Positions 1 through 63,343 of a stretch of DNA of 64,000 bases are shown here, in pieces. Within the stretch, counting starts at the first letter, position 1; every line of letters begins with the position of its first letter. The translations under genes and the position numbers were made by a program. The notes under the pieces are model-generated. The model worked only from the letters and a program-made list of their open reading frames with translations. It was not told where the DNA came from and did not search any database. This stretch comes from Candidatus Omnitrophota bacterium (GTDB lineage Bacteria; Omnitrophota; Gorgyraeia; Tantalellales; Tantalellaceae): contig JADGBR010000002.1 in NCBI GenBank assembly GCA_015231405.1, positions 4,642 to 68,641 of the forward strand. Direction: 5' to 3'.

Positions 1-895
1 TGACAGGCTTATATCTCATTTGTGCTTCGAGGGGCACTATACCGAAATCCTCTTCCCCGGGAAAAATAAGCGCCTTACATCCCGCGTAATAATCTTCAAG
101 CTCAGCGTCATTGACCCACCCCGCGAAATGTATATTCCCCCCGGCCTTTTTTTTCAACTTCTCATACTCAGTGCCGGTCCCAACGATGACTAATTCCTTC
201 TTATTCTTATTGAAAACCTCGACGGCCAGATCCACCCTCTTGTACGGGACTAAGGCGGAAACCACGAGGTAATAAGTCGACCCTTCGGGGACCATAGACC
301 ATGGACCATGGACCATGGTATTTTGGGGATGTGGTTCACTAACGGGCGGATATATCACGGCAGCGTCCCTTCCGTAATACTCTTTTATCCGGTCCTTCAC
401 GGCGTTACTATTGGCTATGAAGTGGTCGACTCCCTCATTCGTTTTCAGGTCCCATTTTTTCATCCAGCTAACTATCCACTTGATCAGCTGCTTCTTCAGA
501 ACGTTCTCACGTGAAAAATACTCGTCAAAAAATTTCCACGCGTACCTGATAGGCGTGTGGCAATAACATATATGCAGCGCCCCTTCCTTCTTTCTCGCTC
601 CCTTAGCCGCGCAGTGGCTCGATGAGATGACCAGATCATACGCCGAAAGGTCGAAGCTTTCTATCGCCCATGGGAAAAATGGCAGAAAACTCCTGTAATT
701 CCTTTCTATGCCTGGTATTCTCATCAGTAAAGACGTTCTTATATCCATTTTTTCCATATCCGCCGCGACACTGCCCTTCTTATGGACCAGGGTGTATATT
801 GTCGATCCCGGGTACAGCTCCAAAAGAGCTTCCAGACATTTCTCCCCACCACGCATGCCGGTCAGCCAGTCATGGACGATCGCTATCTTCCTCAT
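1..895 (-). CDS. Glycosyltransferase family 4 (partial, continues beyond window start)
   Basis: Open reading frame on the minus strand from ATG at 893-895 to the window edge. The N-terminus MRKIAIVHDWLTGMRGGEKCLEAL is a classic GT4 start. The ATGA overlaps the stop of the next gene. It is missing from the ORF track only because no stop codon falls inside the window. Confidence 0.7.
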   Translation of the reverse strand, partial: MRKIAIVHDWLTGMRGGEKCLEALLELYPGSTIYTLVHKKGSVAADMEKMDIRTSLLMRIPGIERNYRSFLPFFPWAIESFDLSAYDLVISSSHCAAKGARKKEGALHICYCHTPIRYAWKFFDEYFSRENVLKKQLIKWIVSWMKKWDLKTNEGVDHFIANSNAVKDRIKEYYGRDAAVIYPPVSEPHPQNTMVHGPWSMVPEGSTYYLVVSALVPYKRVDLAVEVFNKNKKELVIVGTGTEYEKLKKKAGGNIHFAGWVNDAELEDYYAGCKALIFPGEEDFGIVPLEAQMRYKPV

Positions 896-3313: not shown

Positions 3314-4404
3314 TTTTGCCCCATAAGTTCGTCCAGGGCGGCTTCTACTTCCCCAGCGTCCAGCCCGGAAACGACCTTACCTTTTGCCGGGATAACGGCT
3401 CTTACTTTATCGCCCTTTGGAAGCCACTGCGCGGGCATGTGTGTCCCGTTCATGAGGACCACCGAAGCCGTCCCGGCGGCCCCGGCCAGATGAGCGGGAG
3501 CCGAATCTACGCCTATAAATATCCTGGCCCTCTTTAAAAGGAAATACAGGGATCCCAGCGTGGTCTTTCCTGAAATATCCATAAAAAAACCGTCAGCCGA
3601 GGTTGGCCGGAATTTCCCGGCGTCAACCTTTCCTCCTGCTATAACGGTCGGGAGGGAATAACGTTCCCACAAATACCCGATGATCCGCATGAACCCTTTA
3701 TCTTCCCACTCTTTCGACATATCACCGGGGAAAGGGTGCATGACCGCGTAATCTCCCGGCAACCCTATCTCCTTCAAGAGAAGGCCGGCCGACACCTTAT
3801 CTCCGTCAGGAAAAGACAGGTCTATTTTTGCTTCTTTAATGTCTATCCCAATTGCTTTTAACAACTCCAAATTCCTCCGTGTCTCATGCATTATCCCTTT
3901 GTATCTCACTTCAAGGTTAAGCAAAAAACCGCATCCTGTTATCCCGTAGCCAACCCGGTACTTCACTCCGCCAAGGAACATCGCTAGAATGTGCCTCGAA
4001 TCCCCCCTTAGGTCTATACAAAGATCATAACCCTCTTTCGATATAAGTTTAACGAGAGGGAGTAGACTCCTCACGTTCTTAAAGAACTTTGAACCGTTCC
4101 GGTCGAACCATGACGGCCGGAACTCGATGACCCGTGAGATATCCCGGTTGCTATTAACGACAGACGCCGCCCATACCGGAGCGAGAAAATGTATCTTCGC
4201 TTCCGGAAAATTTTTTCTCAAGGGGCCTATAACTACGGTCGAGTTCACGACGTCTCCTATATGATCAAGCCTGATGACCAGTATCTTTTTAACTCTTACG
4301 GGCTCGAACCTCGAGACTAACCGTACAGGAAAAAATATGGCTCTCCCGATAGCGTCGAATATTGTAAAGAACAAAACTAAGAAACGCTTCTTGTATACGT
4401 ACAT
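3310..4404 (-). CDS. Glycosyltransferase family 9 (ADP-heptose:LPS heptosyltransferase family)
   Basis: KKILVIRLDHIGDVV near the N-terminus and GVDSAPAHLAGAAGTASVVL near the C-terminus, both typical of RfaF/RfaC-type GT9. Confidence 0.8.
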   Translation of the reverse strand: MYVYKKRFLVLFFTIFDAIGRAIFFPVRLVSRFEPVRVKKILVIRLDHIGDVVNSTVVIGPLRKNFPEAKIHFLAPVWAASVVNSNRDISRVIEFRPSWFDRNGSKFFKNVRSLLPLVKLISKEGYDLCIDLRGDSRHILAMFLGGVKYRVGYGITGCGFLLNLEVRYKGIMHETRRNLELLKAIGIDIKEAKIDLSFPDGDKVSAGLLLKEIGLPGDYAVMHPFPGDMSKEWEDKGFMRIIGYLWERYSLPTVIAGGKVDAGKFRPTSADGFFMDISGKTTLGSLYFLLKRARIFIGVDSAPAHLAGAAGTASVVLMNGTHMPAQWLPKGDKVRAVIPAKGKVVSGLDAGEVEAALDELMGQK

Positions 4405-4423
4405 GAGAACTCCGGTGACTATT

Positions 4424-4470
4424 GGACCATAGACTATGGACCATGGTCTATGGTCTATGGTCTATGGTCC
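4424..4470. repeat. Heptamer palindrome, family A: GGACCAT AGACTAT GGACCAT | GGTCTAT GGTCTAT GGTCTAT GGTCC
   Basis: Read directly from the sequence. It covers the whole 43-bp intergenic gap and extends into the last 7 codons (TIDHRP) of the upstream GT2 gene. Confidence 0.8.
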
Positions 4471-5164
4471 TCTTACTACCCCCCGCTATCCTATATTTAA
4501 ACAGCGCCAACACCGTCGACACCCCGTCCCTCCATGTTATCTTCTTCCCTTCATCATACCCGCGACCGCGGTACGAGATAGGCACTTCACGTATCTTCAC
4601 ACCCCGGAGGAGCAGTTTCGCCGTGACCTCAGGTTCGAATTCGAACCCGTTAGACCTTATATCCATGTCCTTAAGTATATCCGTTCTCACCATTTTATAG
4701 CACGTTTCCATGTCTGTCAGGGACGCTCCAAACATGACATTCGTGAGAAAGGTCAGAAACCAGTTGACCATATAATGCGGAAGCGACGTAGCTTTCCAAG
4801 TCGAAAGGAACCGCGACCCGAATACGGCACTCGCGCCAGTCTTTACGGCGACCGAGACCAGTTTGGTTATTTCCGCGGGAGAATATTCCATATCCGCGTC
4901 CTGGACTATCACATATTCTCCCGTAGCGCGGGAAAGAGCCGTACGTATCGCCCCCCCCTTCCCCTTGTTCACCTCGTGGTAATAGACCGAAATTCCGTTC
5001 TTCCCTCCAGGGAACTTTTTGCCGAGTATTTCCCTGGTTCCGTCCGTGGATCTATCGTCGACGACTATTATCTCTTTTTCGCACGGGAGGTCGACTAGGA
5101 GCTGAAGGACGTCCCCTATTGTTTTTTCCTCGTTATATACGGGAACCAATATCGATATTTTCAT
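4448..5164 (-). CDS. Glycosyltransferase family 2
   Basis: MKISILVPVYNEEKTIGDVL...IIVVDDRSTDGT (GT2 DXD region). The start is placed at the ATG that overlaps the stop of the upstream gene (ATGA at 5161-5164). Confidence 0.8.
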   Translation of the reverse strand: MKISILVPVYNEEKTIGDVLQLLVDLPCEKEIIVVDDRSTDGTREILGKKFPGGKNGISVYYHEVNKGKGGAIRTALSRATGEYVIVQDADMEYSPAEITKLVSVAVKTGASAVFGSRFLSTWKATSLPHYMVNWFLTFLTNVMFGASLTDMETCYKMVRTDILKDMDIRSNGFEFEPEVTAKLLLRGVKIREVPISYRGRGYDEGKKITWRDGVSTVLALFKYRIAGGSKRTIDHRP

Positions 5165-6216
5165 GCAACCGCCAGTGTTTTGTAGACGTGAGCCGTTTTG
5201 AGGGCTATTTTTTCCCACGTAAGATCGCTCATGATATATTGCCGCAACAGATCTGTTTTAGGGGATCGGAACGCCGTTTCTATCTTGTCTCTGATATCGT
5301 CCGGACTATCGGGCCTTAAATATAACGCCATATCCTTAAAATATTCCCTGGTGCTTCCACCGTCCGTGACCGCCAATTTTGCCCCGGCGAGACCGGCCTC
5401 AAGAGCGGCAAGGCCAGGGGTCTCGAACCAGGCGGGAAGGACGAAAACCCCGCATGCGGCGTAAGCCGACCTTAACATACCCGACCCGTGGTCCAGACGC
5501 CCGAGGAACCGGACATTCTCCCCGGCTTCTTTCCTACACGCTTCCATGTACCACTCGTATCCGGAAACCGCCTCGCCTATGAGTACGAGCTCCCGTCCAG
5601 AACCTTTAACCGCCCTTATGAGATTCAGCTGGTTTTTCCTCGGCTCTATGCGCCCTACGGAAAGGATAAAATCACTGATACCGTAACTTTTGATGAATAT
5701 TTCCGGTTCAGCCGCGAAAAAAACTTTATCCACGCCGTTGGCGACTACCCTCATCTTATCCCTGGGTATCCCGAACAACCTGGATATCTGCGCGGCCTCG
5801 CCTTCGGAGTTCGGGATGATGACATCAGCCGTGTCGAACATTTTCTTCCGGCCGGACGGGAATACCGGACAAAGAACCTTGAGCGTATGCCGGATAACCT
5901 CTTCGGCTTTTTTAATGAACGTCCCTTCCTCGCAAAAAGCCCGCCTGTAATCGGACCAGAAAATAGACTCGAGCACGACTTTTACGCCTCTGGAACGCCC
6001 TACCCTCATTAGAGGAAGACACTCCTTGACCGCCCCGAACACATGTAGTATCGAGTAATCCTCGATCTTATCGTTCCAGGTATCGAACCGCCTCACATCG
6101 ACTCCGGCTAATTTGAGATACTTTTCGAGATTCTCCAAGAGTATCTCACCGCCGCCTTTGTTCTGGAAGGCGGAAGGGTATACGAAGAATGCGACCTTTA
6201 GCTCACCTGTAAACAT
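5161..6216 (-). CDS. Glycosyltransferase family 4
   Basis: 351 aa with a GT-B/GT4-like C-terminal domain (RFLGRLDH...GVFVLPAWFETPGLAALEAGLAGAKLAVTDGGSTREY). Confidence 0.75.
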   Translation of the reverse strand: MFTGELKVAFFVYPSAFQNKGGGEILLENLEKYLKLAGVDVRRFDTWNDKIEDYSILHVFGAVKECLPLMRVGRSRGVKVVLESIFWSDYRRAFCEEGTFIKKAEEVIRHTLKVLCPVFPSGRKKMFDTADVIIPNSEGEAAQISRLFGIPRDKMRVVANGVDKVFFAAEPEIFIKSYGISDFILSVGRIEPRKNQLNLIRAVKGSGRELVLIGEAVSGYEWYMEACRKEAGENVRFLGRLDHGSGMLRSAYAACGVFVLPAWFETPGLAALEAGLAGAKLAVTDGGSTREYFKDMALYLRPDSPDDIRDKIETAFRSPKTDLLRQYIMSDLTWEKIALKTAHVYKTLAVA

Positions 6217-6224
6217 ACGTTTCC

Positions 6225-6310
6225 GTGGGACGTGGGACGTGGGACGTGGGACATAAAACGTTAACTATGCTATAACTCGCACGTCCAACGTCCCACGTCC
6301 TACATCCTAC
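6225..6310. repeat. Heptamer palindrome: (GTGGGAC)x4, 30-nt loop, then GTCCAAC GTCCCAC GTCCTAC ATCCTAC
   Basis: Perfect 4x tandem heptamer at 6225-6252. Degenerate reverse-complement copies at 6283-6310. Confidence 0.85.
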
Positions 6311-6342
6311 GGTATAATCCACCAGTTCAATATTGCTCATTG

Positions 6343-7461
6343 CTATTTTTTCCTGCCAAACTGCCTAACAAGCACATCCAAAATCCGTTCCGCCGCGCGG
6401 CCGTCGCCGAAAGGATTTTTCCAATCCCGCTTACGGCTCAGCATCACGCGCGCGCTTTTTACTATGTTGACGGGATCTATTCCGGCTATTATGTTCGCGC
6501 CCACATCGACCGTTTCAGGCCTTTCGGTGGAATCACGGAGCGTTACGCACGGCACTAAGAGAACGCACGCCTCCTCCTGCACTCCTCCGGAATCCGTAAG
6601 TATAAGCGCCGCGTTAGCCTCGAGCGCGATGAATTCGGTGAAGGCGCATGGCTCCATAAGTTCCATCCATCCGGAAACGGATATGCCGAATTCTTCCATC
6701 TTCTTCACGGTACGCGGGTGGGCTGGGAATATGATCGGAAGCTTGTGGTCCACTCCGATCTTCTTGATCGCTTTCAATATCCCGACGAACCTTTTTTTAT
6801 CGTCGACGTTCTCCTGTCTGTGGATAGTGAGAAGAATATATCCGCCCTTATCAGGAGAGCCCGGCAAATTCCCGGACCATTCCGGCCTTTTGAAGTAAAG
6901 CGTGTCGACGAAAGTATTCCCCGTCACAAAAACCTTTTTCCTTTTCACTCCCTCCGATAAGACTATATCCCTCGATTTTACCGTCGGGACAAAAAGCAGG
7001 TCTGACAGATGATCCGCCATTATCCTGTTTATCTCTTCCGGCATGCTCCTGTCGTAGCTCCTGAGCCCGGCCTCTACGTGAGCGAGCTTGATATCGAACC
7101 CGGTGAACGCCTTTGTGGTCGATATTTTTGACGCGGTGAGAGCGCCGGCTAAAGTGGAATTCGTATCCCCGTGGACCACAACAACGCCCGGCAGCTCCTT
7201 AAGAAGTATCTGCTCGAGCCTCATCATCATCCTGCCCGTGTGATCTCCCTGCCTCCATGGGGCCTTGGACCGTATGTTCAGGTTATAGTCCGGCATCGGC
7301 AGGTCAAGCTCCCGAAAAAACCGTCTCGACATCACGGTCGAATAATGCTGGCCGGTATGGATCGTTACGAACGGTATTTTTTCCCTTACGCTCAACCTGA
7401 TGACCGAACTCAATTTAATGATCTCGGGCCTGGTCCCGAATATGAAAGCTATCTTCATCAT
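6343..7461 (-). CDS. wecB: UDP-N-acetylglucosamine 2-epimerase (non-hydrolysing)
   Basis: MKIAFIFGTRPEIIKLSSVI...HTGQHY is the canonical WecB/MnaA N-terminus. Length 372 aa. Confidence 0.85.
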   Translation of the reverse strand: MMKIAFIFGTRPEIIKLSSVIRLSVREKIPFVTIHTGQHYSTVMSRRFFRELDLPMPDYNLNIRSKAPWRQGDHTGRMMMRLEQILLKELPGVVVVHGDTNSTLAGALTASKISTTKAFTGFDIKLAHVEAGLRSYDRSMPEEINRIMADHLSDLLFVPTVKSRDIVLSEGVKRKKVFVTGNTFVDTLYFKRPEWSGNLPGSPDKGGYILLTIHRQENVDDKKRFVGILKAIKKIGVDHKLPIIFPAHPRTVKKMEEFGISVSGWMELMEPCAFTEFIALEANAALILTDSGGVQEEACVLLVPCVTLRDSTERPETVDVGANIIAGIDPVNIVKSARVMLSRKRDWKNPFGDGRAAERILDVLVRQFGRKK

Positions 7462-7464
7462 GCT

Positions 7465-8628
7465 CTAAATGAAAAACTCAAGTATATTCTCTTCCCCCGC
7501 CTTTTTGCCGATCCTTTCAAGCGATATCAACGCCTGCAGCGCGAACATCGTGCACCATGAATTAATATGATCCGTCTTTTTTCCGTCGAGCGTGTATCCG
7601 TAATAGAACCCGCCCTTTTGGTATTCGTCATCGAGGAGCTGGAACGATAGAAGACATTTTTTCGCTTTACCGAGTTTCTCCACATCGCTCTCAGCGAGAT
7701 ATCCCAGCTCACGCTGTAAAGAGCCGAGCCTGATGACCTGGGCAAGCGCGTCCGACCTGTAATAGTTGACGAATTTGTTATCAACGTATTTCTTGGGTAT
7801 CCCTCCGTCCCCGGCCTGGTTATCAAGCGCCCACCGCACCGCTTTTACCGAAGACTCTATGAGATCTTTCCTGTTGAAGCGGACCCCGGCGTAAAAAAGC
7901 CCTTCCCCCGAATACATATGAGGGTGCAAATGCGTACTCCTGTCGGTCCTCGCGGTTATGAACCTGCCGGACGGGTCCTGGAATTTCATGGCGGCCTCGG
8001 ACAATTCGATCACCGTGTCCTTATACTCCCTCGTCTTGGTCGCCTCGTATAGGTCCGTGAACCCGAGCGCCAGCTTCGCGAGATAACTGCCGCTTTGCGT
8101 TGACCATTTCCAGTTGTCGTCAATTTTCTGGTTGGTGCGGGCATTGTAGACGGCGTAAAAAAGGCCGTCGGGACGTTTCATTTTTCGGAGCAGGAACCCG
8201 GCTATTCTTTCCGAAAGCTCGAGGTATTTTTCGTCCCTGAATATCTTATAGAGATTTATGAGCCCGTAAAGCACCATGCCGTTGTCGAAAGCGTAGATGT
8301 TCTCGCTCTCGAAAGAATAATTCTCGGATTCCTTAAGCGCCTTCAGATAATATCTTGTTTTGACGCCGCCGCACGGGTGGAGAGCCTTTCTCTCCAGCCA
8401 CTGGGCCGCTTCGCGCGCCTTGTCCAGATAGTTCCCGTCGAAGAACTTATTGATGAACAAAAGGGTCGTTATCCCGTAGCCCGTGATCTCGGAATAAACG
8501 AACGAGTAATTATCGTCTTTGATATCGTACCAGGCGTTGAACCCTCCTTTTTCGGTCCCACCGGTATTCTGTATCCCCGAGGTCAATATCCAGTCCCGGG
8601 CCATCATCACTTCTTTACTGTATTCCAT
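7465..8628 (-). CDS. Hypothetical protein, likely (alpha/alpha)6-toroid fold (AGE or C5-epimerase-like superfamily)
   Basis: 387 aa, soluble, aromatic-rich repeats; C-terminal NSWCTMFALQAL. Fold assignment is only an impression. Confidence 0.3.
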   Translation of the reverse strand: MEYSKEVMMARDWILTSGIQNTGGTEKGGFNAWYDIKDDNYSFVYSEITGYGITTLLFINKFFDGNYLDKAREAAQWLERKALHPCGGVKTRYYLKALKESENYSFESENIYAFDNGMVLYGLINLYKIFRDEKYLELSERIAGFLLRKMKRPDGLFYAVYNARTNQKIDDNWKWSTQSGSYLAKLALGFTDLYEATKTREYKDTVIELSEAAMKFQDPSGRFITARTDRSTHLHPHMYSGEGLFYAGVRFNRKDLIESSVKAVRWALDNQAGDGGIPKKYVDNKFVNYYRSDALAQVIRLGSLQRELGYLAESDVEKLGKAKKCLLSFQLLDDEYQKGGFYYGYTLDGKKTDHINSWCTMFALQALISLERIGKKAGEENILEFFI

Positions 8629-9173
8629 TATCCCTCCGTGTTCTGTTTCTTTCTCCTAGCTTTCGCCGGGTTCCCATAACACACGGCGCCGGCAGGAACG
8701 TCCCTGGTCACGACCGAACCGGCTCCGATAACGGCGCCGGCCCCTATATTTACATCGGGAAGTATCGTCGAGTTGGCCCCGATGGACGCTCCCTTCCCCA
8801 CTTTCCATGATATCCCCGAAAGGTCCCGCGTCTTCCCGCTTTCGGGATATTTATCGTTCGTAAAAACGACATGCGGTCCTATGAAGACCCCGTCCTCCAC
8901 GATAAGCCCGTCGTATAAACAGCTTTTATTGTGCACGCGGACGTTATCCCCGATACGGACGTTCCTGTCCACATAGACCCCGTTCCCGATGACGCAGCCT
9001 TTCCCGATAACGGCCTTATCCATGATCTGCACGAAAGCCCAAATTACGGTACCTTCTCCTATAACAGCGCTTTCCGAGACAATAGCCGTCGGGTGCGTTC
9101 TCACTAAAGCCGTTCTTTTACCCATTCGATATTTCTCCTCAACCCTTCGTCTATGAACACTTTCGGCTCCCAT
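8628..9173 (-). CDS. Hexapeptide-repeat (left-handed beta-helix) sugar N- or O-acetyltransferase, PglD/WbbJ-like
   Basis: Repeated [LIV]G-x-x-x-x-I hexapeptides (VIGEGTVI, VIGKGCVIGNGVYV, IGANSTILPDVNIGAGAVIGAGSVV). The true start may be the internal Met at 9125. Confidence 0.8.
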   Translation of the reverse strand: MGAESVHRRRVEEKYRMGKRTALVRTHPTAIVSESAVIGEGTVIWAFVQIMDKAVIGKGCVIGNGVYVDRNVRIGDNVRVHNKSCLYDGLIVEDGVFIGPHVVFTNDKYPESGKTRDLSGISWKVGKGASIGANSTILPDVNIGAGAVIGAGSVVTRDVPAGAVCYGNPAKARRKKQNTEG

Positions 9174-10069
9174 CCGAACAGCTTTTTAGCCAGCGAATAA
9201 TCGCATAAAAGTTTCGGCACCTGCGCCAGCCGGTCCTTTGTGTGCACTATCTTGGACTTCGACCGGCAGAGCTCTTTTATTTTTTCGGCAATATAGTTGA
9301 TCGTAATGGCCTCTCCCGTACCGAAATTCACCGATCTCCCGACGGCATCTTTGTGTATCCCCATTAACAGGAAAGCGTCCACCATGTCGTCGACATAGGT
9401 AAAATCCCTCGACTGGTTCCCGTTCCCGTGTACGGTGATGGGCTTATTCCCGAGAGCTAGCTCGATGAATTTTGGTATGACGTCGTATGTGTGTCGCGGC
9501 CCGTAGGTGTTAAATGGCCTTATCACGGCAACGGGAAGCCCGTAGGTATTCCAGTAAGCATAGCAGTATTTATCCGCGGCGACCTTGCTGGCGGCGTAAG
9601 GAGAGGACGGAAAGAACAGGTGGTCCTCATTGATCGAGCCGCCTATCGTCATGCCGTATATTTCGCTCGAGGAAGTGCAGATGATACGTTTTATGCCGGA
9701 CCCTTCCTTCACCGCGTGAAGCATGTTAAGGGTCCCTATGACGTTCGTTTCCATGACCTCCATCGGATGGTCAAAAGAGTTAGGCACATAAGCGTCGGCG
9801 GCCAGGTGGAAAATTATATCGGGTCTAGCCTTTATCGCCAGGTCTTTGGCGTCGGGCGAAGCGATATTGCCGGTAATTATCTCGTCCAAGTCCTTTTCCG
9901 CATGCGATAAATTCTTTAAAGTGTATTTGGTGGTGCCGGTAGTCGAATTCCCTCTTACAAATATCGATACTTTGGCTCCCTCGCCGAGAAGTTTTTCGGT
10001 AAGGTGAGACCCCATGAACCCGTCCGCCCCCGTAACCAGGACTCTTTTTCCTCTGTATTTACCGAACAT
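9104..10069 (-). CDS. NAD-dependent epimerase/dehydratase (extended SDR)
   Basis: VLVTGADGFMGSHL Rossmann motif and a YxxxK region. 321 aa. Confidence 0.8.
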   Translation of the reverse strand: MFGKYRGKRVLVTGADGFMGSHLTEKLLGEGAKVSIFVRGNSTTGTTKYTLKNLSHAEKDLDEIITGNIASPDAKDLAIKARPDIIFHLAADAYVPNSFDHPMEVMETNVIGTLNMLHAVKEGSGIKRIICTSSSEIYGMTIGGSINEDHLFFPSSPYAASKVAADKYCYAYWNTYGLPVAVIRPFNTYGPRHTYDVIPKFIELALGNKPITVHGNGNQSRDFTYVDDMVDAFLLMGIHKDAVGRSVNFGTGEAITINYIAEKIKELCRSKSKIVHTKDRLAQVPKLLCDYSLAKKLFGWEPKVFIDEGLRRNIEWVKERL

Positions 10070-10347
10070 TGTTCCCTCCGGAATATTCGTTGTGATCTTT
10101 TCGGAATAAATGAGATTTGACTGTATGTATAATAATAATGATTTATCAGTATATCATCCTAAATGGGGGGGAACAACTAGAAAAGACGCGTAAACTTGAG
10201 GTTAGGTTAAGATAAAAGGCATCATCCCCGCGAACAGATTTAAAAACGGGGATCAAATGAAAATATTTCACTTTTATGGGGTTCCCGCTTTCGCGGGAAT
10301 GACATTTTTAACTTTCGCTGATATACGGTTACAAGAGAACCCAGACC

Positions 10348-10737
10348 CTAAGCGATTTGAGCCTGCTCTCTCAAAGTCTCGAACTGGTCCTTGATCCTGT
10401 CATAGACGAATTCCGCGATCTGGGTCTTGTTCTCTTTTGACATCTCCAGGAACTTGCCGCCGACCAGAAATTGCTCATCGGTAGGCGATTTATGGATCCA
10501 CATTATTTTGAATATCGTCCTGACATTGTGAGCCACGAGCGGCAGATCGAATTCCAGGATCAATTTGTGGGACATGGCCGTAAAATGGTCCAGATAGAAA
10601 GACATCCCTCCCAAGCTTAAATTCTTGGCCAATACCTCCATGGGTGTTTCTTTCGCCAACAAAAAATCCTTACATTTCAATGCAAGATCAACGCTTATTC
10701 TCGGGTGTTTCCTATTATTGTGTACTAGTCCACTCAT
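10348..10737 (-). CDS. PilZ-domain (c-di-GMP-binding) protein
   Basis: RKHPR (RxxxR) and NLSLGGMSF (D/NxSxGG) motifs at the correct spacing. 129 aa. Confidence 0.7.
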   Translation of the reverse strand: MSGLVHNNRKHPRISVDLALKCKDFLLAKETPMEVLAKNLSLGGMSFYLDHFTAMSHKLILEFDLPLVAHNVRTIFKIMWIHKSPTDEQFLVGGKFLEMSKENKTQIAEFVYDRIKDQFETLREQAQIA

Positions 10738-10969
10738 AATACACCTCCTCTCCTACAATTGCTGTTTCAATTTTTTCCCTTTTTCCATTGTATTATCATA
10801 TCTATTATATCACTTCAGGTGATAGATTCAAGTGTTTTGTTCTAACTATTTCATAGATAACAAAGGCGGGGCATTACCGCAAAAGTGAAGATCAAATAAA
10901 ATATCGTTGTTTTTGTGAAGTCCAAGTTTTTCGGAATGACAATTTTAATTATAAACTTGAACATTCATT

Positions 10970-12697
10970 TCAGATCACTTTCCGACGGGAAATGAATTTT
11001 CTCGCGATCATTTTCAATGTTTTTTTAATGGAACCGCATTTAAGGTCTTCCGAGGGAGTTTCGGGCTCGTAATCCAACGCTAACTTCACCGATATTTTAA
11101 TTTTTTCGGATGCGGACAAACGCGATATTTCACCGTCAAATCCTGGGTCCGGCGGGGGATAATCACCGGACCCGTGGTCATTTGAGCCTTTCCTTTTCAT
11201 CACTCTGTATTTTCCTATTGTCCAGAACTCATGGATATCATTCATAGAGACTTGTTTAAGAGCCCGCCTATTGACGGCGTGGTCAAGTATGGCCGATAGT
11301 ATCGCGGGTACTTCCGGATATTTCGGGCTTGTATGCGCGTAAACTATGACCGGTATGGAATTGGATATCATGTAGTCTATAGCATTTTCATAATACATTA
11401 TGATCGCCTCTATGTTCCCGTACCTCTTATCGAGAAAGAGTTCCGGGGCCACCGGAAATACGGGGATCTGGAGAACACGCGACCAACCGTCCCTAAGACA
11501 TGGATACGACGGATATCCGGAATAATCGTATGCGAAATCGGACGAATATAAATAACCTTCATCCTCCAGCGCCTTCATAAGTGAGGGGACATAGCGCCCT
11601 GTAGGGGCAGCGAACCCGGTCGTCACGATACCGATATTCCTGAAAAACTCTCCGGCTTTTCTTATATTATGCCTGTTGGTGGCGTAATCCCCGTAGGCGG
11701 CGTGATAATATCCGTGCGAACCCACGTCTATCCCGAGACCACGGCATTTTATTATCTCGTCAGGAGCTTTCTCGAACGATCTTACGTTAAAAAATATCGT
11801 TATCGCGCGGCTGTACTTCGAGAAAACCGGATAATACGCGTTGAACGTCCCCTTCTCATACTCGTCAGCGTCTATCCTGAGACAAAAGCTGTCGGAGGGG
11901 AACGTCTGTTCATTTTTTGAACGCCCGAAAGACCTTTCGGAAGCGACCCTTTCCCTGACCCTCATCCCCCGGGGTCCGAAATCCTTGTAAACCGACCGGC
12001 GGGCTTTTTTAAAAAAACCTGTCCCGGCATCCTCCAGGCCCATCCTGTCGGAAGCTTTATAGGACAGGCTGAGTGACCCGTCCTGTGCTATACCGGCGCA
12101 TGCCCCGCCCTCTATCATCCTCGCGGTTTTATCCAGAAGCTCCGCCCCGAGCGAGAGGTTCTTCATCCTTAACGACCGAAGATCATCATGGGGACGCACC
12201 TTAAGGGTTTTCCGCATCAGGATATCGCCCGCGTCCAGATCTTCGCTTATAAAATGAACTGTTACGCCTATCTTATCGATATCGTTATTGCGAAGAGCCC
12301 AGAATTCAGAATCGGCGCCCCTGTAATACGGCAGTATGCCGGAATGGAGATTTATGGCCCCTCGGGAAGCCTTACCGAAAATGTCGGCCGAAAGTTTACG
12401 CGTCCCGACGACAATGATAAGTTCCGGGGATATTTCCCCGAGCGCTTTCCCGGATTCCGGGGAGTTTATGTCTAGGACCCTGACAACTTTCAGGGCGGGG
12501 TATCTTCGCGCGAGCGCCTCATAATTCATTGCAAGTATCGCTCCATTAAGGAGATAAAGGGCTCTCTTGACCCTCGCCTTTAAGGTCACGGGCTTGACCT
12601 CGTAAACGATGGCCCTAATGTCATGACCCCGGGAAAGAAGCTTCCCCGAAACCATAAGGCCGTCAAGAATATCGCTGGTAAGTAACGCTATCCTCAT
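10970..12697 (-). CDS. Fusion protein: N-terminal formyltransferase domain (Fmt/ArnA-N-like) plus C-terminal NodB-type polysaccharide deacetylase/deformylase (ArnD-like)
   Basis: INLHSGILPYYRGADSEFWALRNND matches the formyl_transf core. The C-terminal half has NodB homology (RIDADEYE...GSHGYYH...). Confidence 0.6.
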   Translation of the reverse strand: MRIALLTSDILDGLMVSGKLLSRGHDIRAIVYEVKPVTLKARVKRALYLLNGAILAMNYEALARRYPALKVVRVLDINSPESGKALGEISPELIIVVGTRKLSADIFGKASRGAINLHSGILPYYRGADSEFWALRNNDIDKIGVTVHFISEDLDAGDILMRKTLKVRPHDDLRSLRMKNLSLGAELLDKTARMIEGGACAGIAQDGSLSLSYKASDRMGLEDAGTGFFKKARRSVYKDFGPRGMRVRERVASERSFGRSKNEQTFPSDSFCLRIDADEYEKGTFNAYYPVFSKYSRAITIFFNVRSFEKAPDEIIKCRGLGIDVGSHGYYHAAYGDYATNRHNIRKAGEFFRNIGIVTTGFAAPTGRYVPSLMKALEDEGYLYSSDFAYDYSGYPSYPCLRDGWSRVLQIPVFPVAPELFLDKRYGNIEAIIMYYENAIDYMISNSIPVIVYAHTSPKYPEVPAILSAILDHAVNRRALKQVSMNDIHEFWTIGKYRVMKRKGSNDHGSGDYPPPDPGFDGEISRLSASEKIKISVKLALDYEPETPSEDLKCGSIKKTLKMIARKFISRRKVI

Positions 12698-13605
12698 CCG
12701 ATAAAGTCCTTCAGGTCGTATTTACGTTCAAGGAACTCTGTTTTCATTAGAGCCCTCTTCTTAAGAGCAAGCGGCAGACGTTTCAACGCTCCGATGAACC
12801 CGATAAGCACCGTGTCCTGTCCCTTGAGAAGGAGAACTAATATCCTTGGCAAGGTGAGAAGAATATGCGCGAACAGTATGTCCTTCTCCCTCACGTTCTT
12901 CCAGATAAAGAGGAACATGTTCCTGTGGGCTATCGTCATCTTCCTCTTTTTCCCGTACTCCCTGTGAAAAGTGGTCGACTCGTCATGGAATACCACCGAC
13001 CGCGGCTCGTAAACCCCTTCCCACCCCAGACACATCGCCCTGAAACAAAGGTCGACCTCCTCCCATATGCCGGGAAGGTATAAGTCGTCGAACCCGCCCA
13101 TCGAAACAAAAGCGTCCCTCCGGAAGGCTCCGGTAGCGATCGAATGGGTCTTGCCTCCGGACATGAAATTATCATAATCCACCCTCATTTTTACCGCCCC
13201 CAGAGAGAATCCCAGGAAAGACTTTCCCCCATTGAAAGTGCCGTCGAAGTTCATGAGCCTGGGAGCGGCGAACATTATCTTTTCGTTCGAGAAATGCGCG
13301 ACGAGCGGGTCAATAAAATCCGGCTCCGCCTTCATATCGGTATTGAGTAGTATGACCACGTCGCTGTCGAGGCCCGCGACGAAAGCGTTGTAAGAAAATA
13401 GGACCAGGTTCCGTGGAGCGGGTATGAATCCCACTCCCGGGAAAGACCCTGCGACCAGCTCACGGCTCGAGTCGCTCGAACAATTATCGAGAACGTATAC
13501 CGCTGAATCGTGTACGGATCTTATGGCTGCCGCGCATACGGAGGGAAGGTACTTTTCCAAAAGGTCTCTGCCGTTATAGTTCAGTATGATTATGTCTATT
13601 TTCAC
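12694..13605 (-). CDS. Glycosyltransferase family 2
   Basis: MKIDIIILNYNGRDLL...YVLDNCSSDSS. Confidence 0.8.
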   Translation of the reverse strand: MKIDIIILNYNGRDLLEKYLPSVCAAAIRSVHDSAVYVLDNCSSDSSRELVAGSFPGVGFIPAPRNLVLFSYNAFVAGLDSDVVILLNTDMKAEPDFIDPLVAHFSNEKIMFAAPRLMNFDGTFNGGKSFLGFSLGAVKMRVDYDNFMSGGKTHSIATGAFRRDAFVSMGGFDDLYLPGIWEEVDLCFRAMCLGWEGVYEPRSVVFHDESTTFHREYGKKRKMTIAHRNMFLFIWKNVREKDILFAHILLTLPRILVLLLKGQDTVLIGFIGALKRLPLALKKRALMKTEFLERKYDLKDFIG

Positions 13606-13628
13606 GGAAAATACCTTTCACTTCTTCT

Positions 13629-15197
13629 TTATCGTTCCAACGTCTTTCCGGCGTTTCGGTCAGTCAAACAGAAAATCACGACGAAAAAAGCCGAAACCAG
13701 AAAAATAGCCGCGAGCGCTCCTGTAATGACGTAAACCAGATAAGAGTATTCAGGCGCGAAATGGAGTACTTTTATGGACCAGGCGTCAAACGCGTTATAA
13801 TCTTTCATACTGGCAATGATGGGCTTCGCGAACCAGTAATCGGGATCGTACATGAAAGGCACGTCTCTTCCGGATAACAGATAACTTACCCTGGCCATGA
13901 ACATCTTCCAGGCACCCGATATCGGAGAGAGGTCCGGCACAAAGTTTATTAGGTATTCTTCCTGGCCCAGGCGCTCTTTCACGAAAAAATAGAATTTGGA
14001 CTGATTGATCAGCATGCACGGCGCCATGGCGAGGAATCCGGCCATTGAAAAGAGCGTAATAAGTATCCTGGCGGCTAAACCTTTTGAGCGCGAAAGGTAT
14101 CCCCCGAGTACTAAAGCCATAAAAGGGACCGCGATAAGCAGGTATCTGGGTCCCCACGAGAAAAGCGATCCCCTTCTGAAATGGTTGGAATAAAAGAACA
14201 ATACCCCAAGGAAAAACATGAGGTAAAATATCATTTCCTTATCCTTCTTTCTGAATATATCCCTCACGGCGAAGATCGACAGCGCAAGCGGGATGTTATA
14301 ATAAAGGAACCCTTTGCCCGGGCTGACAAGGTAATAAAAGAGCCCTTTGACGAGATGCTGTCCCCTGAGAAGATGCCCCTTCATGTCCGTAACGCTGTAC
14401 GCCGTTCCCCCCGGAAAAAGATCGGAGTAGCCTTTGTAATAAGCGAACGCGAGAGTTGAGGAGACCGCCAATGACAAAAAGAAAGAGACCGCCGCGATAT
14501 ACTTACTTTTTCGGTCCAGCGGGCTGTCACATATCACCCAAAGGCCGTACAGAGTGAAGAAAGGTATATAAATAAAACTTTGCTGCCTCGCGAACATAGC
14601 GCACGCGCCGGCCAATGCCGCGAGGAACAGGAACCGCAACTTTTGTCCATCCTTATACATCAGGATACAGAGCGCCGACGTCAACAGGAACAGAATTAAC
14701 GTCGGCTCCGAAAAACCCGTGCGCGAGTAGACCGGAGCCATGGTACAGAGGCCATACACGAGCGATATCGCAACCGCGCCGGACCGTCCATGTCCCAGCC
14801 TGAGAGATATCAGGAAAATAAGCAACGCGTTGAAAGTCGATACGGTCGGGTTGAAGAAAGACACCGCCATCATCGTTATAAAATCGTGAGGGATATTCAC
14901 CAAAAAACGCGCCGCGAAATGTCCAAAGGCGTAAAAAGGGGTTATAAGGGCCGGAACTCCTATCCCCGCTCTTGAAGAATATCTTTTCCCGTCATTACCC
15001 ACAATGCCAGCATTCACCTTGTAACCAAGTGCGTTCTTTCCGTCCGGCTTCTCTATAAAAGCCGTTCCTTGCCCCAGCACGATACTTTCGGCGGTAAGGT
15101 AATCCTCGTAACCGTCGCCCCCGAAATGCCCTATCGAGAAAAATACGTAGAAAGATAAAAACAAAAAGAAGACCGCAAATCCTGTTTTATAGTTCAT
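13629..15197 (-). CDS. Polytopic membrane glycosyltransferase, GT-C fold (ArnT/PMT-like, GT39/GT83-like)
   Basis: 522 aa, more than 10 predicted TM helices, with an ArnT/PMT-like N-terminal loop region. Confidence 0.45.
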   Translation of the reverse strand: MNYKTGFAVFFLFLSFYVFFSIGHFGGDGYEDYLTAESIVLGQGTAFIEKPDGKNALGYKVNAGIVGNDGKRYSSRAGIGVPALITPFYAFGHFAARFLVNIPHDFITMMAVSFFNPTVSTFNALLIFLISLRLGHGRSGAVAISLVYGLCTMAPVYSRTGFSEPTLILFLLTSALCILMYKDGQKLRFLFLAALAGACAMFARQQSFIYIPFFTLYGLWVICDSPLDRKSKYIAAVSFFLSLAVSSTLAFAYYKGYSDLFPGGTAYSVTDMKGHLLRGQHLVKGLFYYLVSPGKGFLYYNIPLALSIFAVRDIFRKKDKEMIFYLMFFLGVLFFYSNHFRRGSLFSWGPRYLLIAVPFMALVLGGYLSRSKGLAARILITLFSMAGFLAMAPCMLINQSKFYFFVKERLGQEEYLINFVPDLSPISGAWKMFMARVSYLLSGRDVPFMYDPDYWFAKPIIASMKDYNAFDAWSIKVLHFAPEYSYLVYVITGALAAIFLVSAFFVVIFCLTDRNAGKTLER

Positions 15198-57633: not shown

Positions 57634-57654
57634 GAGATCTCCCTATTCAGCTAT

Positions 57655-57757
57655 CCGCATAGCGCATAGAGCAAAGCGCATAGCGTATTTGTATTCTATA
57701 TGTGGCTGGTCCCTCTTGCAATTCGTGCGCCATGCGCTCTGCGCTTTGCGCTATGCC
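57655..57757. repeat. Heptamer palindrome: CGCATAG CGCATAG AGCAAAG CGCATAG, 42-nt loop, then reverse-complement copies
   Basis: Left arm 57655-57685 and right arm 57728-57757 are reverse complements. The element fills the gap between two CsbB-like genes and supplies the last 2 codons of the upstream gene. Confidence 0.8.
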
Positions 57758-58476
57758 GAATACTCCCCCCGCAAATCCGCCATCTTGATCATTACAAGGC
57801 TCTTGAACGATCTTATCCCATCCCTAAGGGGCTTAACCTTCGACGTCAGTTTATGTTCCCACTTGACCGGAACTTCCGTCACCCTCAGCTTGAATTTTTC
57901 AGCCAGGAAAAGGACTTCCGTATCGAAAGACCAATCGTCCATTTTCTGCGCCGAAAAGAGTTTTTTCGCCGCTTCGCTCCTAAAGAGCTTGAAGCCGCAA
58001 TTAAGGTCCCGAACGGAACAGCCGAATATTATCCTCGAAAGCAATATATATACCTGCCCCATCATCACCCTCGATAACGGTTCCGGAACAATGATCTGCG
58101 AACCCCTCTCGCGCCTTGTCCCGATGGCTATGTCGGAATGTTTAATGACCCCGAGAAATTTGTCTATTTCCGATATCGACGTCGAATTGTCGGCGTCCAT
58201 GAAAAGGACGACATCGCCCCTCGACGCCATGATACCCTTACGGACGGTATACCCCTTGCCTTTATTGACCTCGTTCCTGAGGACCTTGAACTCCTTGAAA
58301 AGACGGCGGCCCGAACATGCTTCACCAAAAGTCCCGTCGCCCGAACCGTCATCGACGACTATCACTTCGCTTGAATAGTCTTTTTTTGAAAGAAAGCCCG
58401 ATATCTCCCGAAGAGTATCCCCGATATTTTTTTCCTCGTTATACGCAGGTATGACCACTGAGAGATAAATATCCAC
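57751..58476 (-). CDS. Polyprenol-phosphate sugar synthase (GT2, DPM1/CsbB-like), second copy
   Basis: LSVVIPAYNEEKNI...VIVVDDGSGDGT...MDADNST. Confidence 0.75.
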   Translation of the reverse strand: MDIYLSVVIPAYNEEKNIGDTLREISGFLSKKDYSSEVIVVDDGSGDGTFGEACSGRRLFKEFKVLRNEVNKGKGYTVRKGIMASRGDVVLFMDADNSTSISEIDKFLGVIKHSDIAIGTRRERGSQIIVPEPLSRVMMGQVYILLSRIIFGCSVRDLNCGFKLFRSEAAKKLFSAQKMDDWSFDTEVLFLAEKFKLRVTEVPVKWEHKLTSKVKPLRDGIRSFKSLVMIKMADLRGEYSA

Positions 58477-59636
58477 TATGCCCCTTTTTTAATGAATTCC
58501 GTGACCTTCTCTATGACATACGCTATTGCTTCTCCGGAAAGCTCAGGATAGACCGGCAGGGATATTATCTCATCCGATAATTTCTCCGATACCGGATAAT
58601 CTTTTTTATCGTAACCGCATGAAGCGTAACATTTCTGGCTGTATAACGGTACCGGATAATACACCCTGGCCCCTATCCCGTTCGCTTCCAGAAAATCCTT
58701 AAGTCCTTCCCGGTCCTTGACCGCTATGGTGTATTGGTGATAAGTGTGTACGTTCCCCGGCGCCACTTTAGGCGTCCTTATCGGCAGACCTTTAAATGCG
58801 GAGTCGTATTTAGCGGCTACACTTCGCCTCGCTTCGAGCCATTTGTCAAGATATCTGAGTTTCACTCTGAGAACAGCCGCCTGCAGGCTGTCCAGTCTTG
58901 AGTTATACCCCAATTCTTCATGTATGTATTGCGTCTTGCTCCCGTGAACTCTTAACGACTTTACATGGTCGATGAGATCCTTATTATCGGATATCACCAT
59001 ACCCCCGTCGCCGAAACCGCCGAGATTTTTACTCGGGAAAAAACTTAAACAGCCCGAATCACCCAAAGATCCGGCCTTTTTACCCCTATAGGTAGCCCCT
59101 ATAGCCTGGGCCGTATCCTCTATTACCTTAAGCCCGTATTCCCCGGCGATATCGAGTATCCGCGTCATATCCGCGCATTGCCCGTACAGGTGCACCGGAA
59201 TTATGGCCTTGACTTTGCCCTGCTGACCATGGCCCATGGACGATGGACCATGGACCTTGGCGTTGTGGTTCTTCAAATACTCTTCCACCTTATTTACGTC
59301 GATGTTATACGTTTCCGGATCTACGTCCACGAATACCGGCCGGGCTCCGACGATAGATATAGCTTCGGCCGTAGCCATAAAAGTGAACGGCGTAGTTATC
59401 ACCTCGTCTGCCCGGCCTATTCCGAGCGCGACGAGCGACAATATCAAAGCGTCTGTCCCCGAAGCGACTCCGGAAGCGTATTTCGTCCCGGAATAAGCGG
59501 CCACCTCATCCTCGAGCGCTTTGACCTCTTCAGATAAGATGAACTTCTGGCTGCCGATGACCCGGAGAACCGTCTCATCTATTTCTTTCTTAATGCTTTT
59601 ATACTGCGCTTCGAGATCTAGTAATGGTACTTTCAT
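58476..59636 (-). CDS. DegT/DnrJ/EryC1/StrS-family PLP-dependent sugar aminotransferase
   Basis: 386 aa. GSQKFILSEEVKALEDEVAAY, GTDAL, AIIPVHLYG and SFFPSKNLGGFGDGG motifs. It contains an in-frame heptamer-repeat insertion (HGPSSMGHGQQ). Confidence 0.85.
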   Translation of the reverse strand: MKVPLLDLEAQYKSIKKEIDETVLRVIGSQKFILSEEVKALEDEVAAYSGTKYASGVASGTDALILSLVALGIGRADEVITTPFTFMATAEAISIVGARPVFVDVDPETYNIDVNKVEEYLKNHNAKVHGPSSMGHGQQGKVKAIIPVHLYGQCADMTRILDIAGEYGLKVIEDTAQAIGATYRGKKAGSLGDSGCLSFFPSKNLGGFGDGGMVISDNKDLIDHVKSLRVHGSKTQYIHEELGYNSRLDSLQAAVLRVKLRYLDKWLEARRSVAAKYDSAFKGLPIRTPKVAPGNVHTYHQYTIAVKDREGLKDFLEANGIGARVYYPVPLYSQKCYASCGYDKKDYPVSEKLSDEIISLPVYPELSGEAIAYVIEKVTEFIKKGA

Positions 59637-59749
59637 TATTTTCCTCTCTGTTCTTTGGTTGGTTTTTATTCACCATTTTCGGGCGCGATAAATCGCGCCC
59701 CTACATCACCCTAAACTCGCTAACGAGCTCGGGCCGGGGGACCCCGCCC

Positions 59750-61561: not shown

Positions 61562-61573
61562 CGCTCCTCGTTG

Positions 61574-61666
61574 CTTTCAGCTATCGGCTTTCAGCTATCA
61601 GCTATCAGCTTTTAATGTAGGCTAAACACAATAAAACTGAAGGCTGAAAGCTGGAGGCTGATAGCT
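61574..61666. repeat. Heptamer palindrome, family E copy 1: (CTTTCAG/CTATCAG)x5, loop TAATGTAGGCTAAACACAAT, then CTGAAAG-type copies
   Basis: Read directly from the sequence. It lies in the cysN-cysD gap. Confidence 0.8.
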
Positions 61667-62546
61667 ACATATACCCCTCACGCCTAAGCGTCTCAAGCCC
61701 CCCACCGTCCTCACGATCCTGTGCCCTTCCCGAACGCTCGGCGATATTCGAGAATTTACCGGTCCTAAGCTCTTCGACTATTTCAGCCGGATCTTTTGCG
61801 TCGGACTCCACCGGGAAAGTGCATGGGTAGCAGCCAAGCGACCTGTATCTTTTACCGCCACCTTTACTGTAATACAATGAGACAGTAGGTATCTTTTCCC
61901 TGTCTATGTATTCCCACACATTAAGTTCGGTCCAGTCAAGAAGCGGGTGGATCCGGAGATGCGCTCCCGGGGGGAAATCGGTATTGTAATAGTTCCAGAA
62001 TTCAGGCGGCTGTTCCCCTATATCCCAGGCGTTCTCTTTATCCCTGGAAGAGAAATATCTTTCCTTGGAACGGGACCCCTCCTCGTCAGCTCTTATCCCG
62101 GCTATTATGCCCGTAAAAGGATCGCCGTTCGGATCTTGAACATACTTGCCCTTACCATGGTCAAACCTGTAACGTACACCTTCGGCGCTCAAAACCTCTT
62201 TCAGTGCCTGTGTCTTTAAAAGTCCGCAGCATGTGATACGGTCGGTTTTGCCTGCGGGATAGGAATTTCCTGACCCGATAGCAGTCTCATTCTTGCCATA
62301 GACCATATTAAGATGCCACTCACGCGTAATCTTATCGCGGTATTCGATCATTTCGGGTATTTTGTAAGAAGTGTCTATATGTATGAGCGTAAAGGGGACA
62401 TGCCCGAAAAAAGCCTTTCTCGCGAGCCAGAGAAGCACGGTCGAATCCTTCCCGATTGACCAAAGCATCCCCAAATTCTTAAAATTGGCATAAGCCTCCC
62501 GTAGAATATATACACTCTTATTTTCTAAGATATCTAAATGATTCAT
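61665..62546 (-). CDS. cysD: Sulfate adenylyltransferase subunit 2
   Basis: [40 protein letters not shown] and ETLRREGYM align with E. coli CysD. Confidence 0.85.
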
Positions 62547-62549
62547 TTT

Positions 62550-62641
62550 TTTCAGCTTTCAGCTATCAGCTTTCAGCCTTCAGCTTTATTGGGGTTAGCT
62601 TACATTAAAAGCTGACAGCTGATAGCTGAAAGCTGAAGGCT
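62550..62641. repeat. Heptamer palindrome, family E copy 2 (inverted relative to copy 1, judged from the loop sequence)
   Basis: Arms TTCAGCT TTCAGCT ATCAGCT... The loop ATTGGGGTTAGCTTACATTA is the reverse complement of a near-copy of the copy-1 loop. Confidence 0.8.
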
Positions 62642-62647
62642 AAGAGC

Positions 62648-63160
62648 TTACAAGTATCTCTGAATATACTCTATCACTTTCCGAACCGACTCCTCAACAC
62701 TCTCCACGCCAGTATCAACGACCAGCTCCGGCCGTTCGGGCGCTTCATAAGGATCGCTTATGCCGGTGAACCTGTCTATCTCGCCGCACCGCGCCTTCTT
62801 ATACAACCCCTTGGCATCTCTTTTTTCGCACTCCCCGACAGAGGCCGAGACATAGACCTCAATAAAAGTCGAACATCTTTTCCTCGCGAATTCCCTGGAG
62901 GCTTTATAGGGGCTAATGAACGAAGCCAGGACGATGACGCCGTGTTTCTCCAATAACGATGCTATGAAACCGATCCTTTTTATATGCTCATTACGCTCTT
63001 TTTCCGTGAACCCCGTGCCCGGAAAAATATCTCTGACCGCGTCCCCGTCGAGCGTCTCGACCTCATATCCCTTTCCGGACAAATACTTCGCGATCTCTCG
63101 GGCAAGGGTGCTCTTTCCCGATCCGGAAAGACCGGTAAACCATAAAACGAACGGTGTCAT
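62648..63160 (-). CDS. cysC: Adenylylsulfate kinase
   Basis: WFTGLSGSGKSTLA P-loop, LDGDAVR and RDAKGLYKKARCGEI motifs. 170 aa. Confidence 0.85.
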   Translation of the reverse strand: MTPFVLWFTGLSGSGKSTLAREIAKYLSGKGYEVETLDGDAVRDIFPGTGFTEKERNEHIKRIGFIASLLEKHGVIVLASFISPYKASREFARKRCSTFIEVYVSASVGECEKRDAKGLYKKARCGEIDRFTGISDPYEAPERPELVVDTGVESVEESVRKVIEYIQRYL

Positions 63161-63177
63161 TGCCTTTTGCCACCCCC

Positions 63178-63342
63178 ATTTAGTGATGGGTGATGATATC
63201 TGTGGGATAACTTGCAGTGATGTATGACGGGTGAATGTTCATGCTGAAAACTGTCGAATATTCAGGATGACCATTGACCCCTCACTCATCACCACAGATT
63301 GCCAACTCACAACGTCACCCATCACTACAAATCACCCCTATT
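63178..63342. repeat. Long imperfect intergenic palindrome (GTGATGG-rich arms of about 60 nt)
   Basis: The left arm ...TTAGTGATGGGTGATGATATCTGTGG... matches the reverse complement of the right arm ...CCACAGATTGCC...TCACCCATCACTACAA... Confidence 0.6.
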
Positions 63343-63343
63343 A

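Follow-up and report, generated by a model that had tools for sequence, protein, structure and literature searches.

Heptanucleotide repeat arrays within genes and spacers of two Omnitrophota glycan clusters

A 64,000-nucleotide (nt) stretch of Candidatus Omnitrophota contig JADGBR010000002.1, called the window below, holds arrays of a GACCATG-type heptamer (family A) at three sites: in a partial GT4 glycosyltransferase gene, in a palindrome at the end of a GT2 gene, and in a gene for a DegT/DnrJ/EryC1 sugar aminotransferase (hereafter DegT). We propose that these are probably heptanucleotide simple-sequence repeats (SSRs) of the long class, generated by slippage and then screened for an intact reading frame, with no special module involved.

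All three sites reported in the initial annotation are present (Table 1). Tandem Repeats Finder (TRF) gives period 7 with 4.3 copies and 91% matches in the GT4 gene, a 7/14-nt period in the palindrome, and period 7 with 5.1 copies and 82% matches in DegT; at 4.3, 5.1 and 5.1 TRF copies, the arrays are head-to-tail repeats beyond chance, as in heptanucleotide long simple-sequence repeats (LSSRs). The two-unit probe GACCATGGACCATG, with up to 3 mismatches allowed, matches the window 28 times against 3.6 ± 2.1 in shuffled sequence, a count reached by none of 100 shuffles. When periods 4-12 were scanned under a uniform scoring scheme, period 7 alone yielded arrays in the window. Each of the three family-A sites overlaps a coding region (GT4, the end of GT2 and DegT). 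We considered whether being stop-free in all six frames sets GACCATG apart, and rejected it, as the same is true of 50% of all heptamers. Owing to its CCATGG core, a family-A array is almost complementary to itself, and slipped hairpins may be favoured as a result.

On the minus strand the GT4 array translates as ..NTMVHGPWSMVPEG.. and the gene stays open. The fragment in the window is 100% identical to P0121, a 389-residue protein from a Candidatus Omnitrophica metagenome-assembled genome (MAG; 205-kb contig); homologues of both the GT4 and the DegT protein carry the name Candidatus Omnitrophota or Omnitrophica. In full-length P0121 the Pfam domains span residues 61-185 and 203-347, and the residues encoded by the array (approximately 193-203) fall in the linker between them. 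Across 120 GT4 homologues the two Rossmann domains are joined by YPPVD-x10-(F/Y)YL; the linker in the window is 8-9 residues longer than this canonical form. Several other GT4 orthologues bear unrelated odd inserts at the same linker position, and the array peptide was not found in any other listed GT4 homologue.

The DegT array, read on the minus strand as ..AKVHGPSSMGHGQQGKVKAIIPVH.., also leaves its gene open. Its peptide is shared only with P0001 (89% identical) and is missing from 119 of the 120 homologues. In the AlphaFold2 model of DegT (mean pLDDT 85), confidence drops below 50 at residues 126-138, between helix 114-124 and strand 142-145, and in the solved homologue 7b0d the array position corresponds to a gap of 17 residues. 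Inside genes, arrays occur solely where the protein is unstructured and tolerates changes in length. That both segments are lineage-specific insertions with reading frames preserved was suggested from the start; the orthologue alignments, the Pfam limits and the gap in 7b0d agree with this and place both in variable loops; the opposite case, the same peptide in unrelated orthologues without nucleotide repeats, was looked for and did not occur. The further suggestion of a 7-nt unit selected to stay in frame is not supported: single heptamers shift the frame, and only net lengths divisible by three survive.

The third site is a 47-nt palindrome whose 21-nt arms show 90% complementarity; its RNA fold has an energy of -28.3 kcal/mol (z = -6.1). 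Its description as a spacer palindrome holds for the palindrome but only in part for the spacer, since it overlaps the 3' end of GT2 including the stop. The GT2 gene (4448..5218) terminates in ..TIDHRP* within the palindrome, which supplies the last seven codons and the TAG stop (4448-4470). The palindromic array thereby sets the C-terminus of the GT2 protein, and it ends 19 nt upstream of the start of a GT9 gene (4404).

A related metagenomic locus, L001 (JGI 3300042261), is collinear with 57.5-60.0 kb of the window, at 82-87% nt identity in coding sequence. In this relative, at 86% nt identity, the DegT array stands at the same position with the same length, and 33 of its 36 bases are identical (three point differences), which implies that the array was in place before the two lineages parted and that it now changes as any coding sequence does. 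The two spacers flanking DegT, one of which carries the CGCATAG hairpin of the window, are effectively unalignable at approximately 42% identity; in L001 they hold a different, genome-specific repeat of the GTGCACGG type. By these alignments, spacer repeats change quickly while the in-gene DegT array is old. The L001 spacers at 299-388 and 2278-2375, orthologous to 59637-59749 and 57634-57750 of the window, both carry a GTGCACGGGT..TTGAAAAGTGCACGGGT repeat, so that each genome seems to have a dispersed spacer repeat of its own filling the same gaps.

The same DegT loop has been refilled with heptamers elsewhere in the phylum. In the protein alignment, relatives show loop peptides such as RDTRYEIRDT, RNTQYAIRNT, RDTRHETRDT and RATSNEQRAT, which have the look of a translated heptamer array. 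Their DNA bears this out: each array follows TT and closes with ACGAT, or with AC in L205, ahead of the IKA codons. Four perfect copies are found in L002 (GCA_034723315.1; ACGAGAT), L203 (ACGCAAT), L204 (ACGAGAC) and L205 (ACGAGCA). L206 has a degenerate ACGCAAT array, L207 seven degenerate copies of the L205 unit, and L208 a one-copy state (TT ACGGGAC ACGGTC). Loop lengths among the 120 homologues are 13 residues (n=10), 20 (n=89) and 27 (n=1), plus scattered other values, the main lengths stepping by 7 residues, or three heptamers. P0090, with four perfect copies, and P0053, with seven, are 91% identical and differ by a sole 7-residue gap lying exactly at the array. Heptamers are thus gained and lost in steps of three units in this loop of relatives, and array units are homogenised within lineages. 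The units of P0090 and P0064 differ although the proteins are 85% identical, and the genes of P0090, P0053 and L210 share 82-86% DNA identity, yet their loops are unrelated in detail. Steps of three survive because ordinary purifying selection keeps only net lengths divisible by three. Of the mobile or slippage-prone module first proposed, it is the slippage-type behaviour that the relatives' loop displays, in its perfect arrays and its four- and seven-copy states at 91% identity.

Whole-unit change in this loop appears as one, four and seven copies among the relatives, while the array of the window keeps its length in L001. Among the 89 loops of 20 residues, full 7-residue periodicity occurs in 5 against 0.5 expected, and two of three matches in 15 against 5.5; most DegT loops are accordingly non-repetitive, and arrays are a recurrent or persisting minority. 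Inside two clusters formed at 90%, no copy-number variants were found, all members being equal in length. The array-bearing orthologues are scattered in the neighbour-joining order, in a tree that is star-like at 60-70% identity and too weak to bear on their monophyly. In L209 (1253-2407, P0039) the loop holds 2.7 copies of ACGAGGG and a GC-rich insert, CCCCTCGACTTCGCTCGGGGCAGGCGGGACAGGCG, with short repeats of its own; this insert is a second insertion type at the same hotspot.

Heptamer arrays are dense in the window, at 15.6 period-7 regions per 100 kb. In ten further Omnitrophota DegT loci the figure is 13.7 per 100 kb, or approximately 6 without their DegT arrays, for which most of these loci were picked. 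As an outgroup we took homologues from a scan of genome contigs with the DegT alignment, in which the matches listed, to generic motifs, were all from outside the Omnitrophota; these 80 loci (1.29 Mb) have 1.55 per 100 kb, and an array in DegT itself was found in none of them. Period 7 is still the commonest period there, in agreement with the excess of heptanucleotide LSSRs in prokaryotes (PMC4679880, PMC4692102). A unit repertoire shared across Omnitrophota was considered, as GCGCTAT occurs in L209 and in the window and GTCCAT-like units in L002 and L204, and was rejected: orthologous arrays aside, unit distances between genomes equal random ones.

Lag 7 is the dominant periodicity in 7 of the 11 intergenic gaps of at least 60 nt, and these gaps fold far better than shuffled sequence. 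All seven lie within two glycan-biosynthesis clusters at the ends of the window, one with GT4, GT9, GT2 and 2-epimerase genes, the other with GT2, DegT, CysNC, CysD and CysC. The typical build is a pair of inverted arrays of 4-5 units around a loop of 20-40 nt, with folding energies of -35 to -56 kcal/mol, far under those of shuffles. Hairpins span the whole gap from stop codon to next start. The unit differs at almost every locus: family A, which the initial annotation had treated as an isolated phenomenon, is one of at least six heptamer unit families in the window.

Table 1. Heptamer arrays, hairpins and array-bearing genes of the window (strand given as a dot where none applies).
Feature	Position	Strand	Evidence and remarks
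Partial GT4 glycosyltransferase gene	1..895	-	Start ATG at 895-893, extends past the window start; frame-2 translation
Family-A array in GT4 gene, GGACCAT x4.3	289..318	-	TRF and translation; approximately residues 193-203, ..MVHGPWSMV..
Hairpin, arms TTCGTGG / CCACGAA	2010..2093	.	Lag-7 self-match 0.52; minimum free energy -46 vs -25 in shuffles
Family-A palindrome, GGACCAT AGACTAT GGACCAT / GGTCTAT x3 GGTCC, centre CCATGG	4423..4470	.	TRF, inverted-repeat search
Hairpin, arms CGTGGGA x4.1 (perfect) / ACGTCCY	6223..6312	.	TRF, inverted-repeat search, fold
Hairpin, arms CGCATAG / CTATGCG	57654..57759	.	TRF, inverted repeats, fold; missing from the orthologous L001 spacer
DegT/DnrJ/EryC1 sugar aminotransferase gene, intact, 386 aa	58476..59636	-	Pfam PF01041, E = 2.8e-116; end-to-end homologues
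Family-A array in DegT, GTCCATG x ~4.7-5.1, 82% matches	59225..59260	-	Codes for ..KVHGPSSMGHGQ.. in the loop preceding strand KAIIPVH
Hairpin B1, arms GCTWTCA / TGAWAGC	61570..61668	.	TRF, inverted-repeat search
Hairpin B2, the B1 element including its loop, in opposite orientation	62549..62653	.	TRF, inverted-repeat search; beyond the cysD-like gene from B1
Weaker heptamer-like inverted repeat, GTGATGG-type	63181..63327 (spacer 63161-63343)	.	Lag-7 self-match 0.38

We propose the following course of events. This Omnitrophota lineage would form and retain 7-nt tandem arrays roughly ten times as often as other bacteria do. Arrays would arise by replication slippage or stuttering in a 7-nt register, and inverted arms by fold-back or copying. 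Between co-directional genes of surface-glycan clusters they would settle as inverted pairs folding into hairpins of 90-100 nt. Inside genes, out-of-frame or fold-disturbing products would be removed by selection, so that an array should persist only in a structurally free segment and with a net added length divisible by three, as holds for the linker between the GT4 domains and for the DegT loop. The two in-gene arrays of the window may now be fixed, decaying relics that code for disordered peptide.

Several observations weigh against this account. Measured against any orthologue, the DegT insertion of the window does not amount to a whole number of units, being +30 nt against the 20-residue state and +51 nt against the 13-residue state. 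Four pairs of arrays within the window lie at a unit distance of 1 or less where approximately 0.8 are expected, and the family-A unit, present at 3 of about 9 array loci, exceeds what independent slippage predicts. B1 and B2 are plainly two copies of the same element, so a copying process exists besides local slippage. Together, the excess of the shared unit and the B1/B2 pair make some copying or conversion between array loci likely.

It is doubtful that the in-gene tracts are contingency loci, that is, hypermutable switches in which adding or losing a single unit would frameshift GT4 or DegT and so switch a surface-glycan step off or on. Both genes do lie in clusters of the glycan or lipopolysaccharide type, the usual home of phase-variable genes, among surface-structure functions (GT4, GT2, GT9, UDP-GlcNAc 2-epimerase, DegT and sulfate-activation genes), and heptanucleotide SSRs in open reading frames (ORFs) of Haemophilus influenzae have been proposed as mediators of phase variation (PMC2651432). 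The relatives speak for turnover faster than point mutation, their DegT tract being perfect in at least four lineages with a unit that differs at 85% identity, and homogenisation of four units would be easiest by single-unit, out-of-frame steps. However, the tracts of the window are imperfect, unlike the long, near-perfect tracts of such loci; their 4-5 units are few for high switching rates, and that in DegT has not changed in length relative to L001. No frameshifted allele was seen among the listed homologues, a listing in which truncated products would rank low; the few short entries with a source name are annotated as partial, and the rest are unchecked. Lengths are equal within the two 90% clusters, and quantisation by three units is what purifying selection alone would produce. 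With both window arrays degenerate and the DegT array stable in length, current phase variation, to whose repeats they had been compared, is not supported. The perfect tracts of the relatives are somewhat better candidates for an active switch than the arrays of the window.

Family A could instead be a mobile palindromic element, a small selfish hairpin resembling miniature inverted-repeat transposable elements (MITEs), repetitive extragenic palindromes (REPs) or Rickettsia palindromic elements (RPEs), inserted in frame into two genes and once into a spacer. In-frame palindromic elements within genes are known from Rickettsia; RPEs, REPs and bacterial interspersed mosaic elements (BIMEs) are palindromic repeats of operon spacers, and repeat-derived peptides are tolerated in surface loops. 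Three loci, separated by 4 kb and 55 kb, do have the unit in common, one hairpin occurs in two inverted copies (B1 and B2), and the L001 spacers with their different repeat amid 82-87%-identical genes look as if repeatedly colonised. Yet RPEs and REPs are families with a conserved full-length sequence, whereas the three family-A sites have only the 7-nt unit in common: their flanks are unrelated, a comparison of the window sequence found no shared termini or target duplications, no full-length consensus or terminal repeats emerge, and the copies inside genes are direct arrays with a single arm rather than palindromes. Nor does the unit mark one element elsewhere. A metagenome scan for GGWCYAT arrays (RGWCYATGGWCYATGGWCYATGG) returned at least 120 matching stretches; the 80 loci read have a GC content of 32-69%, none comes from this organism, and none has homology to the window beyond the array, which indicates that the family-A unit arises widely. 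With no locus from this organism, the scan is uninformative on the family-A copy number in this genome, and because its pattern selected for the GGWCYAT unit it is equally so on whether this unit is commoner than others. With unit similarity between Omnitrophota genomes also at chance level apart from orthologous arrays, we regard the mobile reading as unlikely.

In 26 of these 80 metagenome loci the array lies in a stop-free frame of at least 200 residues, and such contigs bear other heptamer arrays with unrelated units. In L147 (metagenome contig Ga0156526_1135, GC 0.50) a frame without stops, at least 3586 codons long (3651-14409), contains four arrays of four different units, at 3927, 5481, 8543 and 9748; a fifth array lies upstream, at 1392. 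This frame may be a giant gene with many in-frame heptamer tracts.

Quite improbable, in our estimate, is a functional nucleic-acid motif, with the heptamers acting as binding sites or RNA structures, for instance in post-transcriptional control between genes of an operon, and the in-gene copies belonging to the same regulon. The hairpins fill stop-to-start gaps and fold strongly, and similarly placed arrays of TAACTGA and of GGGAATC have prompted regulatory proposals elsewhere (PMC4679880, PMC4692102). Against this, the changing unit leaves no common recognition sequence, no Rfam family matches the window at gathering score, a terminator-like tail is missing, the GT4 and DegT arrays fold only moderately as RNA (z of -1.75 and -3.5), and the spacers are wholly replaced in the close relative L001. 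Intrinsic terminators were considered separately and ruled out, given the 20-40-nt loops, the lack of a U/T-tail on the minus strand and the fact that a terminator scan does not list the hairpins. Chance or ordinary conserved coding sequence, to which only the shortness of each array lends itself, is virtually excluded by the shuffle statistics, the exclusivity of period 7 and the lack of the peptides from nearly all DegT and all other listed GT4 homologues.

A further, bolder reading concerns the DegT loop alone. Its perfect four-unit arrays at a codon-exact site, with units replaced and states of one, four and seven copies, would make it a phylum-wide, continually renewed tract: either a contingency switch, conserved in an uncultivated and partly host-dependent phylum, that varies surface glycans, or the trace of a lineage-specific synthesis or repair process working in a 7-nt register. 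We put this forward tentatively, as a minority possibility; if true, the same 7-nt-register process would also build the unit-diverse intergenic hairpins.

Known heptamer repeats resemble those of the window in part. Two papers attribute to Mrazek et al. 2007 the finding that heptanucleotide LSSRs are over-represented in prokaryotes relative to other unit lengths, and suggest that the 7-nt register mirrors polymerase-DNA contact, favouring slippage (PMC4679880, PMC4692102). The arrays of the window share the unit length and the proposed polymerase slippage; unlike the class as these papers portray it, they have a unit of their own at almost each locus, form inverted pairs and in two cases lie within enzyme-coding genes without breaking the frame. 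GGGAATC arrays of Xanthomonas and GGGGA(C/T)T arrays of Nostoc (of the short tandemly repeated repetitive, STRR, type) likewise prefer about four units, lie between co-directional ORFs near stops and starts, form occasional inverted pairs, and vary widely in length and sequence between close relatives (PMC4692102); that paper also cites STRR heptamers of Calothrix. Omnitrophota units differ from these in being diverse, not prone to form G-quadruplexes, and in some cases coding.

The TAACTGA repeats of marine Beggiatoaceae also form arrays of 2-6 heptamers, some over stop codons or in ORFs (PMC4679880). They occur just upstream of start codons, with in-ORF copies mostly at protein peripheries, and mobility was suspected with no mechanism found (PMC4679880). 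One unit serves the whole Beggiatoaceae genome, whereas the Omnitrophota have many, paired in hairpins, with in-ORF copies that are internal loops of conserved enzymes. In H. influenzae, phase-variable heptanucleotide SSRs occupy ORFs and promoters, including ORFs of surface-related genes as here, and a change in tract length frameshifts the gene (PMC2651432). Those tracts have 8-38 perfect copies, strain differences in length and frameshifted alleles (PMC2651432), in contrast to the 4-5 imperfect copies of the window tracts and the unchanged length in L001.

What sets this case apart from known heptamer SSRs is the number of units per genome, the systematic pairing into hairpins, the internal in-frame arrays of enzymes, and one loop refilled across a phylum. 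Heptamer SSRs have long been noted and left unexplained in bacterial genomes; the Omnitrophota add a lineage in which the register is conserved and the unit is not. The DegT loop records repeated array birth, homogenisation and three-unit changes, a natural series for measuring 7-nt slippage and for testing tracts as surface-glycan switches in uncultivated bacteria. For annotation, the repeat-coded peptides in GT4 and DegT of these MAGs are to be read as real insertions and not as assembly errors or frameshifts.

Some minor observations follow. B1 and B2, of approximately 95 nt each and with 20 of 25 loop bases identical, stand on either side of a cysD-like gene (61665-62546), which could point to a local duplication in inverted orientation or to an arrangement like a cassette; no target-site duplication is evident at either, though arms and loop are shared. 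Other Omnitrophota loci have intergenic arrays as well: L206 at 1685-1724, 5090-5108 and 6046-6105, L209 at 72-113 and 179-214, and L204 at 2396-2477. Some of these are loop-less inverted pairs (CGTTTAT/ATAAACG in L206), and in this small sample several units hold ACG, as the DegT-loop units do. L210 contains a G-rich period-7 array of approximately 100 nt (7003-7106; GGGCAAA/GAGCGAA-type) in a 98-residue ORF without a Pfam match.

The minus strand carries nearly all genes of the window (1-64000). GC skew stays below zero over almost the whole length (cumulative -3.9), with a short change of sign at 48-50 kb, the place of the only long plus-strand gene (47798-49828). The segment 10001-12000 has a GC content of 0.44 against approximately 0.50 elsewhere, and holds two long non-periodic spacers (10070-10347 and 10738-10969) and a 129-residue ORF.

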